A stretch of 64,000 bases of DNA from Curvularia clavata (taxonomy: Eukaryota): positions 806,001 to 870,000 of the forward strand of contig CP089279.1 in the NCBI GenBank assembly GCA_023920165.1, given 5' to 3'. Shown here piece by piece: positions 2,416-30,845 of the stretch; the first letter of the stretch is position 1, and each line of letters starts with the position of its first letter. The notes beneath the pieces were generated by a model. It had not been told where the DNA came from, did not search any database, and saw nothing but the letters and a program-made list of their open reading frames with translations. The translations under genes and the position numbers were made by a program.

Positions 2416-3642
2416 ATGCACACACCAGACCGTACTTACAGTGGCTTCTTGTCCCTGCCCACCGAGATACGATGTTACATCTACGATTACTTGCTTGCTG
2501 AACCATATGCCATTACCATCAGCGCTGGGTATGCCATTTCCTCTGGTAATCGGATACAAGACTGTGCTCGCAAGACCGAGATTCCGGGTTTGCCACCCCA
2601 TCTTGTTCCGCTGGCACGGCGTCGACACGATACATCCCTCCTCTCCGTTGCGAAACCTCCAACTATCGCCCTCGAAGATGGACAGATGAATGATACTGAG
2701 GGCGAGAAGCTGGGATATCCAGCACCATTGGCATTGTCATTGACTTCTCGGTTGGTCAATGATGAGCTGAGCGATTGTATACGGCGGCGGAGACACATCA
2801 CGCAGGCACGCTCAGTACTCGATGCGGATGGCGTGCCTCAAGATGATGAAGCAAATGAGGAAGGCATGTCACTCTATGTGTCATATCCGTACGGCGTGCT
2901 GGTGTTGAAGAACCAATATCCATACTTGCTGAAGCAAGCGCGGAAAGTTTACATTTCCGGATACTATACTGCTCTTATAGAAGACGAGTCTGCTGCTCCA
3001 GATTCTGGTGAAAACGAACACTTGACGCCATCCAACAGCATCACGGCACCCTCCTTCAACACTCCCGCGTCTGGTCCTACAACGAGCGTCATATCCACAT
3101 CCAGCATTTCCCCCAGACGAACGCCCCGCCACAACGCATCGGCGAACTCAACTCGTCCCCGCCTCCGCATGGGCCAGCCACTCCCACGCGAATCGCGCCA
3201 CGCGGCCAACATAGCCGCTGCATTCCCTGCCTTTTCCAAATCAACCGCAACCCACGCTCCTGTTGCTCTCGAACACCTCATGTCTACAATATTCCCCAAG
3301 AATCTTGTTCCTCTCGCCAAGTGCACAGCACGCATCCTTTTTCCAGGCGAGAATACATATGGAAGTCTTTGGGGAGATGACAATAGCCCGGTCCTTCATA
3401 TTCTGCGCAGCATGTGCGGCGGCAAAATCGATATGAAAGTGCTGCGATGTAATATGGGTACAGGAGTCAAACTGACGGCAAGACCGAAGCCCGAGGCCCG
3501 TATCGTAAGTACGAGTTGGGTTAATTGGAAGAAGGGGGACTTCAGGGTGGCAGGCAATCCCGGTCCACCAAGAAGGGCAAGCGAAGCATTAGGTGTAAGC
3601 GATCTGGATGAGTTTTTGAAGGGTACCGAATGTGGTGCCTGA
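2416..3642 (+). CDS. Hypothetical protein with an N-terminal F-box-like motif
   Basis: Long single ORF; first ATG at 2416; FLSLPTEIRCYIYDYLL resembles an F-box/2EXR-like start. Confidence 0.7.
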   Translation: MHTPDRTYSGFLSLPTEIRCYIYDYLLAEPYAITISAGYAISSGNRIQDCARKTEIPGLPPHLVPLARRRHDTSLLSVAKPPTIALEDGQMNDTEGEKLGYPAPLALSLTSRLVNDELSDCIRRRRHITQARSVLDADGVPQDDEANEEGMSLYVSYPYGVLVLKNQYPYLLKQARKVYISGYYTALIEDESAAPDSGENEHLTPSNSITAPSFNTPASGPTTSVISTSSISPRRTPRHNASANSTRPRLRMGQPLPRESRHAANIAAAFPAFSKSTATHAPVALEHLMSTIFPKNLVPLAKCTARILFPGENTYGSLWGDDNSPVLHILRSMCGGKIDMKVLRCNMGTGVKLTARPKPEARIVSTSWVNWKKGDFRVAGNPGPPRRASEALGVSDLDEFLKGTECGA

Positions 3643-25603: not shown

Positions 25604-27108
25604 ATGGCGCCCTCCAACAGCACCGTCTCGACGCCCGTGCCCTTTCCACAGCCTCAGGATATCACCAACCAGGACGCATCGACTCCTGCCCCGGATGTGC
25701 CTCGCACCAATGCCCGCGACCGAAGCTCTACAAATGCCTCAACCGTTTCGAGTAGACTGCGCAGTGCAACCGGCAAGCTCATGGAAGCAAGCCCCCCACC
25801 AGGAATGTGGGCAGCGACTGGTACCACCGTTGCCAGGGCACCCTCTCTCGCCGACATTCGGGTAGGCTCGTTTGGGTCAGATGGCTGGAACGAGCACGCG
25901 CAGCGCAGTCGAGCAGGCTCTCGGGCAAGCCAGCGCATGTCTGCACCACGAACGTCTGCGACTGCAACAACAACAACAACAACAATGTCAGACCAGCCGG
26001 AGCGCCCGGGTGCTGCAACACAGAAGACAGTGTCAGCTGATGCGTTCAACACCAAGACCTTTCCCGTCTTGGCTGAGGAAGACACTCATCAGACCGCGGA
26101 ACACGACACACAAAATAGCAGCTCTGCACCTAGCGCACTATCGAAGAGAAGTTGCGATATAGCGGCAGAGCAGGTCGATGGCGACCGACCACAGCAACCC
26201 AAGAGGACATCTTCAGGACGGGTATGTCAAAAGGCTGGACCTTTCTTTCCTGCTGTACTGATGCTAACAACAAACAGTATGCGAACGGCTATGTTCCGCC
26301 CCCCAAGCTTCCCTGGAAACGATCCCTTGCCATCGGTCTTAAGAGCTTCTGGAAGTGGTTCCTGACCCCTGCCGGCTTCCTCATCACACTTTACAGTCTC
26401 AACGTAGTTGCATGGGGTGGCATGCTGTTCCTCCTTCTCTGCAATGCTGCGCCGGCCATGTGTACGCCTACCTGCGATGACATCAACTCCCCACGGCGAA
26501 AGTGGATAGAGGTAGACTCGCAAATCCTCAACGCTCTTTTCTGCGTTACAGGCTTTGGACTGGCTCCATGGCGCTTCCGTGATCTCTACTGGTGGGCATG
26601 GTGGAGGATTGGCGGGTCGGCGCGCAAACAAACGGGCATTCGACGATTAGCCGGCATACATCGAGGATGGTTTCGACTTCCTGGCTCAGATCAGTTACCA
26701 GACGACGCGGACGCGACTACCGTCGATCCCGAGAACCCCGCTGTACCCATCCCCGTTAAGACGATCCCAGACCCACCGCCCACTGCAATTCGCGCCCCGC
26801 CAACCAAGAGCTGGACCATGGATGTTGTCGTCTGGTTTAATGTTTGGAACACTCTGTTTCAGATATGCTTGTGCTTCTACATGTGGCACTATGACCGCAT
26901 ACAGAGGCCGTCATGGGCCACGGGACTATTTGTTGCATTAGCTTGTACTGTGGCTGGTGCGGCTGGTGTCATCATGTGGCAGCAAGGCAAAAGAGTTAAG
27001 GAAATCGAGGGAGTGCCCATGCGTAAGGACTATGGCGAACAACCGACAGATGCAGAGGCATCTTCCAGTGTGCCATTGGTTAGAACGGGTGTGGCGACCA
27101 AATCCTGA
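25604..27108 (+). CDS. DUF2985-type membrane protein; intron 26222-26277
   Basis: YANGYVPPPK, NVVAWGGMLFLLLC and WIEVDSQILNALFCVTGFGLAPWRFRDLY; canonical GTATGT...CTAAC...CAG intron. Confidence 0.85.
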
Positions 27109-27689
27109 TATTATTGCCCAGCATTCTGCGTGGCGCAAGTGTGCACTGTTTTCTTGGCGCGCACTTTGGCCTGCGACTCGCCGCGGCTGACATCGTCAAC
27201 TTATTCTGAACCATTACCATAGTCTGCAGACTACATACGTCACATCAACAGTACATAATTGCTCGCCTACCACAGAAGTGTCGCTTTGACTCAGAATATG
27301 CCCATGGTATTCATTACGTCAGCAATGTGTCTTCTACTTGCAGCACAAGGAACCCTCCGGACGATTCGGCCGGGCTTCCCCATAGATCACCAGCGCCTAT
27401 CATAATCGCAATGACAGCCCGGCCAAGCTCTCCCGGACAGTCCGATATGCACACTAAGCAGATTGAGAACCGACCTGTTGACTAGCATGACGTAGATCTG
27501 GCAAACTAATCAGTGACTGGTGACAGATGCACGAGACCTTCAGGGTTCGATTGGTATATATTGCCCAGCCAAGGCCCTCCAAGACGTCCGGTTCGCCTTG
27601 CGATATTTTAAGTGCTGGCTATTTCTGCTATCGCAACGAGCGTGAGAGTGAATATACGACTTATTGCAAAAAAAAAAAAGCTGCAAGAC

Positions 27690-28613
27690 ATGGCAGCACA
27701 AGAATACTACCTAGGCACGCAAGCTGCCCAAGAGCTTCAAGGAAGCCAACCACCCAACCCATACCAGTCGCAAACATCAAAGCCGCCACAATATCATCAA
27801 CCATACGGCGCACCGTCATATGCGAACACGCCGCCTCCATCGTACTCTGTACAGCCTCAACCACCACCAGCACTATCACATCAACGATCTCATGGCTATT
27901 TTCCCCACCAAACGTATCCTGAGAAACCGCCTCAATCACAGACAATGACAGCGCCCTATCCACAAACCCCGCCAGCAGGCTACAATCCTTCTGCACAGCC
28001 AATGCCACAAGCACAGCGCCAACCAAGTAACTACCTTGGTGTACCACTCCAGCATCACAGAAGCCACTCGCAGCCTCCGCGCGTCCACTTTGCAGACCAA
28101 GACTCCGACCGCAGCACAAGCCTGGGCTCGATATCTGACGACGAGTATTCCCCTCGCCGCCATCACCACCACCACCGCCATGAACATCGCCACAATAGTT
28201 CCCACCGCCACAGCAGCCGCTCGCGCCCCCACGAACGTACCTACGACTCAGACTACAGCGACCGCGACCGCGACCGCGACTACGACCGCTCCTCCTCCTC
28301 GCGCCACCGCCGCCACAAACCACACAAGTCGCACTCATACGAGGATTCACACAAGACACGCGACACGTTTCTCGGCGCCGGCGCGGGAACCATAATCGGG
28401 GACGTCATTTTCCCTGGCCTGGGCACTGCAGCGGGTCTAGTGCTAGGCGGATACGGTGGGCGCAAGTACGCGCAGGACAAACTGCGGAGTGAGGAGAGCA
28501 GCGACTCTGGGGGAAAGAGTAGACGGAGAAATCATGGGGGCAGTAGGAGAGCGGGAGATGATGGGTGGGATGAGAAGACGAGGACGTATAGGAAAGGAGC
28601 GGCTGTGAGGTGA
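27690..28613 (+). CDS. Pro/Gln-rich, His/Arg/Ser-rich protein with a C-terminal glycine-zipper-like segment
   Basis: MAAQEYYLG start, low-complexity body, RDTFLGAGAGTIIGDVIFPGLGTAAGLVLGGYGG. Confidence 0.8.
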   Translation: MAAQEYYLGTQAAQELQGSQPPNPYQSQTSKPPQYHQPYGAPSYANTPPPSYSVQPQPPPALSHQRSHGYFPHQTYPEKPPQSQTMTAPYPQTPPAGYNPSAQPMPQAQRQPSNYLGVPLQHHRSHSQPPRVHFADQDSDRSTSLGSISDDEYSPRRHHHHHRHEHRHNSSHRHSSRSRPHERTYDSDYSDRDRDRDYDRSSSSRHRRHKPHKSHSYEDSHKTRDTFLGAGAGTIIGDVIFPGLGTAAGLVLGGYGGRKYAQDKLRSEESSDSGGKSRRRNHGGSRRAGDDGWDEKTRTYRKGAAVR

Positions 28614-28877
28614 ACACGCCCTTCCTTTTTCTCTTTATCCGCCGTCTTTCTTGACGTCTTATGAATGATGAATGTGAGGCCATGGACCGGGGAGAAAGAT
28701 AGAGGAGATTCGCGATGTGTAGTAAGACCTGCTGCTGGTTCAGCTATGATAGAGCAACGATTTTCATAGAGTACATGTAATATAATCCGTGCATCACGAT
28801 ATCGAAGCCTGTAATCTTTTTTAAAAACCTCAAACAAAGGGTTTTCATTCAAATCTTTTGGTGTGTAAACTAACATC

Positions 28878-29228
28878 GGATGTATGTCTTCAACCATTAT
28901 ACAGACGCGGTAGCATTCCATCCATCGTAATTTTTTTTTCAGAAGCAGGAGAAGAAAAGAACAAGAGTAGAAAAATGATGTGTGTCTTCAACCGTGCCCT
29001 GAAACGGTAGCATGCCATCCTGTGTCTAGAAGAAAGGAATTACGTGGAAAAAACAATTGAGGTGATGTGATGTATGTCTTCAACCGTTGCGGTAGCATTC
29101 CATCGTAAATGTCTGAGCGACAATACTAAAAAGGCAATAGATGTAAAAGCGCAACATGGAAGGATGCGCGTAGATGGATGGATGGATGCACGTCTTCAAC
29201 CCTGGAACGACACGGTAGCGCTACATCC
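28878..29228 (-). repeat. Four copies of a conserved hairpin motif in the presumed ERG24 3' UTR (28879-28922, 28977-29019, 29069-29104, 29185-29227)
   Basis: Plus-strand consensus GATG-YR-YGTCTTCAACC-N(5-13)-GGTAGCR-NNN-CATC, with unrelated spacers between copies. Confidence 0.85.
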
Positions 29229-29255
29229 TCAATCCCTCTGGAGGAAAACACTGGT

Positions 29256-30845
29256 CTAGTAGATACCAGGAACGATCCTCCAAGGGACAAGCTCGACGTA
29301 GCGGTCCCAGTCCTTGCCGTACTTCTTCCTGCACTTCTCCTCGTCACGGCGCTCGCGGTGGATGAGCAGAATGGCAAAGTAGACCATGAAGAAGTAGGTG
29401 AAGATCATTCCCCAGCCCTTGGCCTCACCAGGCACTACGTACTTGCCGTAGCTGTCCTTGAAGAAGTAGGCATCGGTTTGGGTGGCGGTGATTGGGTCCT
29501 TGGCGGCGTTCTTGATCACGTATCCAGACATGGCGGTTGGCAGGACGTAAGACCAGCTCATAAACCAGTCGCCGAGGTAGTTGATGTGGCGGGCCATGCC
29601 CCACCAGCCGCTGACCAGGAGCTTAGAGCCAGCAGCCGTCTCGATGTACTTGAGGTGCTTGACGCGCGGGTCTTCTGGGTTGGTCCTGAAGCGGTTCTTC
29701 TCGTTGTTGACGGCGCGGAAAATGTAGTAGCCAATGCCCTGGACGGCCAAGACGCCAGCCACACCGGTCAGGCCGAGTTCGACGGGGTAGACGGAAAGGT
29801 AGCGCGTCTGGAGAGAGTAGGTGAAAGGAACCCAGACAAGGTCGCCAAAGGAAAGCATCATACCGAAACCATCGGCAATGATGTCGATGGTGGTGAGAAT
29901 GGCAGGCTCCATGTACAAGGCGTCAAAGGTGTAGACGGCTTGCGCGACCGTGATGAGGATGATGGAATCGGTGACACGGCCAAAGTTGCGATATTGTTGG
30001 ACAATGAAAGCAAGGTCCAAAATGATCCATCCCAGCATTCCCGGGCGAAGTTCGCACCAAGCTTTGATGTCTACCTCACCAAAGATGGGCAGCTTAACGC
30101 GCGGGTTAAGTTCACGTCCGATGAACCAGTCATACAGCATATTGCCAGTGTGGCCACCGGCAGCAAGCTCTCGCATGGAGGGATCCTTGGGGTGCTTAAC
30201 ACTGAAAGATGCAACATAGACGTAAATGGCCAGTGCGTAGGAGATGAGGATGTTACTGGTGAGAATGCCGGCGTAGTTGTCGTGAATGAATGTCCAGACT
30301 GGAAAATCGGCGCCCTGAGCAATGGTTCCTGCGGCGAGGATGGTCACGATGAAGAGAGCCGAGTAAAAGGCTATATCGAGTCAGCGCAGTCGACTTTTAG
30401 CACTTGACTTAACTTACAATTGAACCTGTACTTGAGTCTGCCGCCTGTCCTGAGCTCAGTACCTTCGTGCTCCCCGCCAGGGAGGATGCTGTACAGGACC
30501 AAGCTCAGGAAGTAGTAGCCCAACGTACCAAGGAGCGCCTCAGTGCTGAGCAGACCAGAGAAACCAGGCCATCCGACCTCTTTCTTCAGCTGTTCAAGGC
30601 TGAAGCTGTGAGGGTGCAAGAGTACAGGGGCAGGGCATCCAGAGATGTCATTGCACAGGAAAGTGAAGACATAGACCAGAACCGGAAGTCCAAAAGAGAT
30701 GATGAAAGCTCCAGGACTGCCAATGGGGTTAGCGCGAGGATGGCTGGGGTGCTCAATTAGAAAACACGTACGGTCCGAGGAATTCGTATCCGTGAGGCTC
30801 TCCGGCGAGCTTCTTGACGCCCTTTTCGGCGCTTGCTTTTGCCAT
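29256..30845 (-). CDS. ERG24: C-14 sterol reductase (ERG4/ERG24 family); introns 30717-30771 and 30371-30417
   Basis: HGYEFLGP|PGAF, LKYRFN, GNMLYDWFIGRELNPR, ELRPGMLGW, LLVSGWWGMARHINYLGDW and HRERRDEEKCRKKYGKDW. Confidence 0.95.

Follow-up and report, generated by a model that had tools for sequence, protein, structure and literature searches.

We analysed a 64,000-nucleotide stretch of Curvularia clavata DNA (hereafter the window), in which a gene of the ERG4/ERG24 family (Pfam) lies on the reverse strand. Its last coding exon (29256..30370, −; stop codon 29256-29258) matches PF01222 with E = 2.2e-136, and the best named relatives of the gene are Delta(14)-sterol reductases of Pleosporales (Plenodomus lindquistii, 91% identity; Alternaria rosae, 90%). 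The upstream border of this exon was taken from the spliced joint of a 47-nt GT..AG intron (30371..30417, −). Facing ERG24 is a convergent gene (26152-28613, +) with a DUF2985 domain in the frame 26152-27108. A second frame of 333 codons (27612..28613, +), the 3′ part of this gene, had no Pfam match but is 56% identical to its counterpart in one metagenome locus (L004); it ends at 28613, outside the element described here, for which the gene had been named as an alternative host.

Just behind the ERG24 stop lie four direct copies of a bipartite repeat, all in one orientation. On the plus strand of the window each copy consists of a 20-nt 5′ block (starting at 28879, 28977, 29069 and 29185) and a 16-nt 3′ block (starting at 28907, 29004, 29089 and 29212), with 5-13 unrelated bases between the two. 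In ERG24 sense each copy forms a hairpin. Copy 1 (29183..29228, −; 47.2 bits against the covariance model introduced below) is nearest to the ERG24 stop; copy 2 (29067..29105, −; 49.8 bits) has the shortest apical part; copy 3 (28975..29020, −; 48.0 bits) has an A-C mismatch at pair 8:47 in the C. clavata window; and copy 4 (28877..28923, −; 50.3 bits) is the last of the array. Copies follow one another at distances of 92-116 nt. A preliminary description of this DNA, made from the letters alone, had reported four copies with an invariant loop and complementary stems, the first about 28 nt past the stop, with apical inserts of 13, 12, 5 and 12 nt and unrelated spacers. Every detail was correct: copy 1 starts 27 nt past the stop, the inserts have exactly these lengths, and the spacers are indeed unrelated. 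The exchange of a U-A for a C-G pair that it had noticed in the copy nearest the stop is likewise real and falls at pair 9:46, where the other three copies have U-A.

A GATG microsatellite of four units (29173-29188) adjoins copy 1; it is longer by one unit (at 29172) in contigs of runs X3, X10 and X14. The units have the same letters as an outer-helix strand and can pair with the outer strands of other copies, as seen both in the inverted repeats I6 and I7 and on folding the entire UTR.

The composite pattern TCTTCAACC-N3-25-GGTAGC was matched four times in the 64-kb window, always within the array and on one strand, and never in 100 shuffles. The 10-mer alone, with one mismatch allowed, was not enriched in the window (6 matches vs. 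a shuffle mean of 4.24). A covariance model built from 31 copies and run on both strands of 108,042 bases, comprising the 64-kb window and all ten metagenome loci described below, gave 48 matches of 44.2-59.8 bits, all within arrays; the window itself contained none outside its array. This search gave strong matches only in arrays linked to ERG24. The idea of a dispersed, transposon-derived repeat finds no support in these data, since no match fell outside arrays in the 108,042 bases and nine of the ten loci recovered by pattern lie at ERG24.

The copies are present in spliced ERG24 RNA. The intron positions (30371-30417) are skipped in contigs of all four runs at the joint 30370>30418; the skipped piece has ends CT..AC on the plus strand, hence GT..AG on the ERG24 strand. 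Because the ERG24 intron is absent from them, those contigs derive from spliced RNA; the runs carry no RNA record and the contigs are unstranded, so they are silent on the strand and the end of the transcript. Record 19 of run X3 (3705 nt) covers 28817-30370 joined to 30418 onward, and so unites spliced exons with all four copies. Record 2 of run X1, from a study other than that of X3, covers 28870-29921 and again all four copies. The ERG24 transcript therefore reaches the copies, with intron-less contigs covering all four in two runs; a transcript that ended before them, with no stable RNA over the copies, would by the preliminary description have refuted its proposal. The 3′ UTR extends at least over 28817..29255 (−), the part of an RNA contig continuous with spliced ERG24 exons, which sets a lower bound on the 3′ end. 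We did not take the contig limits on the ERG24 side (28817 in X3 and 28870 in X1) as transcript ends, nor those on the neighbour side (28807 in X3 and 28783 in X1) as a sign that neighbour RNA stops short of the array. A diverged relative in run X10 has a slightly different joint (30368>30419, with three other letters between), and further joints in X10, a mixed sample, lie within the coding region and at 28611>28867 and also stem from diverged relatives.

The array recurs behind ERG24 in other fungi. A strict pattern specifying 24 bases, scanned against metagenome contigs, matched ten loci; the same pattern had no match in 596 Gb of prokaryote genomes. In nine of the ten loci a tblastn search placed an ERG24 orthologue (81-90% identity over 361-363 aa) directly upstream, with gene and element oriented to each other as they are in the window, and the first copy starts 14-39 nt past the ERG24 stop across loci. 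The tenth locus (L003), with a match of 24.6 bits inside an open frame on a GC-rich contig without ERG24, was set aside as chance. Since L002 repeats L005, and L007 and L009 repeat L010, six distinct lineages stand beside the window. By their ERG24 proteins, L004 and L006 are near Alternaria (97-99%), L001, L008 and L010 near Ophiobolus and Ampelomyces (89-92%), and L005 near Periconia (84%). Mutual ERG24 protein identities among the lineages fall to 78% (up to 22% different), and judged by these distances the six lineages cover much of the order Pleosporales. The motif is thus present in orthologous UTRs, where its absence had been set beforehand as a possible refutation.

At a threshold of at least 44 bits, the arrays have four copies in the window, three in L001, five in L004, six in L005, four in L006, five in L008 and five in L010. 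A looser scan found several copies in each lineage, including some in which the first apical pairs are jointly changed from ACC/GGU to AUC/GAU and others that differ in the first two loop letters. In L001 a truncated copy (2950-2976), comprising the 3′ half only (a CGAAGA-variant loop strand and the outer strand), sits where L008 and L010 have a full copy, and shows copy loss.

The gene on the far side of the array varies. The convergent DUF2985 gene is found in the window and, among the other lineages, only in L004. In L008 a 571-codon open frame of ordinary composition (1226-2938, −) starts directly past the array on the ERG24 strand; it matches no Pfam family, and neither the window nor any other locus has a relative of it. 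The 3 kb that follow the arrays of L005 and L010 hold nothing recognisable, and ten open frames found behind the arrays of L005, L008 and L010 belong to no Pfam family. Across the loci, ERG24 is the sole constant partner of the array.

Two further observations concern the flanks of the arrays. In five of the six other lineages an A/U-rich block follows directly after the last hairpin, in forms such as ATAATGTTTAT or ATAATATCTAAT (L004 1521-1560; L006 190-227; L008 about 2900-2943; L010 3104-3130; L001 3101-3135); it is a candidate polyadenylation signal, and is not obvious in the window. In L005 a tRNA gene (3450-3589, −; RF00005, 40 bits) lies about 340 nt beyond the array, and its 140-nt span suggests an intron.

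We aligned 31 copies from the seven lineages in ERG24 sense. The element is about 40-54 nt long. It begins with an outer helix of 5-6 pairs (columns 1-6 with 48-53), followed by a one-base bulge (column 7; A in 20 and G in 9 of 31 copies) and a three-pair helix (columns 8-10 with 45-47) that is closed by an invariant G-C pair (G10-C45). Next comes an asymmetric internal loop, with CU (columns 11-12) opposite (U/C)GAAGA (columns 39-44), and beyond it an invariant A-U pair opens the apical helix (columns 13-17 with 34-38), whose stem-loop is free in sequence and length. Eleven positions (G10, C11, U12, A13, C15, G36, U38, A41, A42, G43 and C45) are identical in 31/31 copies, and A44 is kept in 30/31. 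The remaining loop columns vary slightly, column 39 being U in 26 and C in 5 copies and column 40 being G in 29 and A in 2.

The helices of this structure are supported by covariation. Standard pairs occupy 88.7% of the 434 pair cells, compared with 24.0-39.0% when the 3′ partners are slid by one to three columns. Double changes occur in 10 of the 14 pairs; 52 cells carry them, vs. 22.7 ± 3.8 after shuffling (0/500 shuffles reach the observed value), although this control overstates independence because the copies and lineages are mutually related. The slid-partner control and a comparison of orthologues are the fairer tests. Part of the pairing in the outer helix carries no covariation information because its sequence is strongly conserved (G2 in 25/31 copies, G5 in 30/31). 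Pair 9:46 covaries, with G in column 46 of 21/31 copies and A in 10/31.

Positional orthologues gave 228 pair cells, of which 184 are unchanged and 44 changed or unpaired. Pairing survives in 30 of these 44, through 24 one-sided and 6 double changes; 13 cells switch between paired and unpaired, four of them in a single bulge-less copy misaligned by one base, and one cell is unpaired in both copies. A clean compensatory case is a C-G to U-A exchange between copy 4 of L006 and copy 5 of L004, whose host proteins are 96.7% identical.

RNAalifold, run without an imposed structure, returned the same three helices and in addition the pairs C11-G43 and U12-A42 (CU:AG), leaving bulges of three nucleotides (columns 39-41) and a single A (column 44), with compensatory changes in 7 of its 13 predicted pairs. 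Folded singly, every one of the 31 copies forms the CU:AG pairs, and 27 of them recover 11 or more of the 14 consensus pairs; the minimum-energy fold of copy 1 in the window has 12 of 14. According to these predictions, the internal loop is most simply seen as two C-G/U-A pairs with a 3-nt bulge on one side and a single bulged A on the other. Folding z-scores of the four window copies on the sense strand (+0.05, −0.51, −1.81 and −2.00) gave no significant signal, and neither did a fold of the whole 439-nt stretch, in which only copy 1 takes the consensus shape (z = −1.17). By these models, folding energy alone does not set the hairpins apart.

We next consider which strand folds. In ERG24 sense, the pair cells include 29 G-U and 14 A-C, or 25 vs. 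4 when the outermost and innermost pairs are left out; RNA of the opposite strand would reverse these counts. The excess of G-U over A-C in the core helices therefore identifies the ERG24-sense RNA as the folded strand. The sense fold was also lower in energy in 22 of the 31 copies (means −13.9 vs. −12.0 kcal/mol; Wilcoxon p = 0.007). The preliminary description had assigned the element to the ERG24 strand from proximity, and this assignment was corroborated by the pair counts, by the sense energies, and by the constancy of ERG24 while the downstream neighbour changes.

Sequence comparison behind the stop tells the hairpins apart from their surroundings. In two three-lineage alignments, 52% and 55% of stem and internal-loop columns are invariant; the corresponding values are 14% and 12% for spacer columns, more than half of which contain gaps, and 9% and 23% for the apical parts. 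The stems and internal loops are thus conserved islands among decayed, indel-rich spacers. Contigs from the runs show where close relatives differ from the window: in spacers (28865, 29137 and the extra GATG at 29172) and in apical loops (28898; 29086-29088), with the insertions in copy 2 of a relative in run X14 confined to the apical loop. The single helix difference (28982 G>A in X3, X10 and X14) gives copy 3 an A-U pair in place of its A-C mismatch. The preliminary description had favoured selection on RNA structure over simple duplication, and both the covariation in three helices and the conserved stem and loop islands in decayed spacers agree with this view.

Several known elements resemble the hairpin in part. 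In the iron-responsive element (IRE) array of the transferrin-receptor 3′ UTR, a regulatory protein gains multivalent access to a metabolic mRNA through several hairpins, and each IRE is recognised via its apical loop and a bulged C. The ERG24 array is like it in having several similar hairpins in one 3′ UTR, with invariant unpaired bases on a covarying stem. Unlike the IRE, it has a free apical part, carries its invariant bases in an asymmetric internal loop, has no sequence relation and belongs to another kingdom. Since the apical parts differ in sequence and length across all 31 copies, loop-read elements such as the IRE were rejected. Kink-turns consist of a 3-nt bulge followed by tandem sheared G-A pairs, which draw purines from both strands. 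The ERG24 hairpin shares with the kink-turn and box C′/D′ a 3-nt bulge between two helices and a purine-rich long strand, but its short strand is an invariant CU (31/31) that pairs canonically with A-G. It offers no purines for G-A pairs, and a kink-turn or box C/D-type motif was therefore rejected. Among further families, sarcin-ricin/loop E, SECIS, the Smaug/Vts1 loop and the hammerhead core were rejected on sequence.

The array also has no counterpart in the collections and studies that we searched. With E values up to 10 allowed, Rfam 15 gave no match in the window between 27500 and 30500. For the six distinct metagenome loci the limit was E = 1; no family matched the arrays there, and the only matches, outside them, were an unrelated tRNA and a sub-threshold lncRNA. 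Among fungal RNA-structure screens, the main text of PMC5640933 does not mention ERG24, and that of PMC8216456 mentions neither ERG24 nor sterol; the main text of a 2025 language-model study (PMC12513839) does not mention ERG24 either. Further full-text searches of the open-access literature found no description of an ERG24 3′ UTR element, and nothing relevant by title. This agrees with the earlier remark that the element was not recognised as a described family, as judged by Rfam and the main texts of the fungal screens.

The closest relatives in kind are the 3′ UTR structures reported in the main text of PMC8216456 (Gao, Jones and Rivas 2021) for thioredoxin, RING-finger protein and thioesterase genes in Pezizomycotina and for GLY1 and MET13 in yeasts. 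As far as that text describes them, they too are supported by covariation, accompany a single orthologous gene in its 3′ UTR in many fungi, and are suspected of having a protein partner. For the most part they occur once in each genome, unlike the three to six tandem copies per mRNA of the ERG24 array, and the queries came from five model species, no Dothideomycete among them. The features that mark conserved gene-specific fungal 3′ UTR elements, namely association with one orthologous gene across lineages, compensatory pairs and presence in the mature transcript, are all found here. The general kind is thus known, that of conserved 3′ UTR hairpins specific to one gene, but the motif itself is apparently undescribed. 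What is unusual is its tandem multiplicity and its host, a drug-target gene of sterol synthesis.

What might such an array do? Its spacers, apical loops and copy number drift while the internal loop is held, and it is on this contrast that we read it as a multivalent binding platform in the 3′ UTR, for one specific factor that would set the stability, translation or location of ERG24 mRNA. We give this reading a probability of roughly 0.6. A factor acting in trans, most likely a protein that binds RNA, would recognise the kinked internal loop together with the invariant pairs on either side of it; one protein domain would read this site, and the three to six copies would be used multivalently; and the bound factor would then set how long the ERG24 mRNA lasts, how well it is translated or where it goes. 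In this respect the array may work like the IRE array of transferrin-receptor mRNA. Both the binding of a protein and its effect on the mRNA are inferred from the anatomy of the array.

Foremost among the alternatives, though unlikely, is that the hairpins are processing or decay signals, cleaved by a structure-specific endonuclease (RNase III-like or other) with decay of the ERG24 mRNA or small RNAs as the result. The hairpins are bulged, have 14-18 pairs and stand in tandem, and their invariant kinked loop could position a nuclease. Yet record 19 of run X3 crosses the four copies without a break and at a depth equal to that of the coding region, and the helices are short and interrupted for Dicer-type processing. 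The RNase III-type enzymes of yeasts, moreover, use apical loops for recognition, and these are unconserved here.

The array could also be a passive structure without a specific partner, either a barrier to 3′-5′ exonucleases or a spacer or terminator aid between packed genes. The intergenic space is short: the window and L004 have a convergent gene, and in L008 a frame on the same strand follows the array immediately. Even so, we consider a passive role improbable. A barrier needs stable helices, and these are weak at the mean sense energy given above (−13.9 kcal/mol); it does not need ten invariant unpaired or loop-flanking bases across seven lineages. The array also stays in place while the neighbouring gene changes.

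Mex67-Mtr2, the fungal counterpart of NXF1-NXT1, is the general mRNA export receptor, and the internal loop might bind it directly, giving ERG24 mRNA an adaptor-independent route of export. The model for this would be the constitutive transport element (CTE), which we compared as it occurs in simian type D retroviruses and in NXF1 intron 10, according to excerpts of PMC4330393 and PMC4338338. In the retroviral CTE, as given in the excerpts of PMC4330393, each symmetrical unit has a conserved AAGACA in its internal loop and takes one Tap-p15 heterodimer. The ERG24 hairpin likewise has an AAGAC core in an internal loop that is invariant, and multivalency, with more than one binding unit per RNA, is common to both systems. 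The likeness amounts to five letters, however, and there is no Rfam match. AAGAC is kept, but the sixth position of the hexamer is a paired and covarying base (G 21/31, A 10/31), so that AAGACA itself is not conserved; the C before it belongs to the invariant closing pair and not to the loop. Unlike the CTE of those excerpts, the array has no two-fold symmetric pair of loops in one long hairpin, and its context is the 3′ UTR of a spliced cellular mRNA. Direct export by this route is, in our estimation, quite improbable.

Small hairpin aptamers typically combine an invariant loop with a variable periphery. The ERG24 hairpins show this pattern, with a compact invariant asymmetric loop, invariant flanking pairs and a freely variable periphery, and their host gene is metabolic. 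One could therefore imagine riboswitch-like sensors of a sterol-pathway or redox metabolite that act on mRNA stability or translation. Each 45-nt unit would then hold a small molecule with a link to the sterol pathway in the pocket of its invariant asymmetric loop, and the copies together would give a steep response of ERG24 mRNA stability or translation; if true, this would be the first eukaryotic metabolite-sensing RNA outside the TPP class. We regard both the sensor and this version of it as very improbable. No expression platform is evident in the sequence, and three to six independent copies of variable spacing and number fit protein avidity better than ligand sensing.

Finally, action at the DNA level, as a binding-site array or hairpin-forming DNA, or neutral tandem duplication is the least probable reading: hairpins can be drawn on both strands and all copies share one orientation, but the G-U to A-C counts of the core helices and the sense energies favour folded RNA, compensatory double changes separate positional orthologues, half-site spacing ranges from 5 to >20 nt, and the element is kept across lineages whose ERG24 proteins have diverged as far as described while their spacers have decayed.

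We return to the multivalent platform as the preferred reading. The step that ERG24 performs is essential to ergosterol synthesis, morpholine-type antifungals target this enzyme, and the Pleosporales include many important crop pathogens. To our knowledge, nearly all that is understood of ergosterol pathway control concerns transcription. That an array of hairpins is kept behind this one gene despite about 20% divergence of ERG24 points to an unrecognised layer of post-transcriptional control. A small motif with covariation support, ten invariant bases and natural multivalency would make a ready bait for a new RNA-binding protein specificity. More broadly, the ERG24 array shows that RNA motifs conserved at the level of a fungal order were missed by screens seeded from few model genomes.
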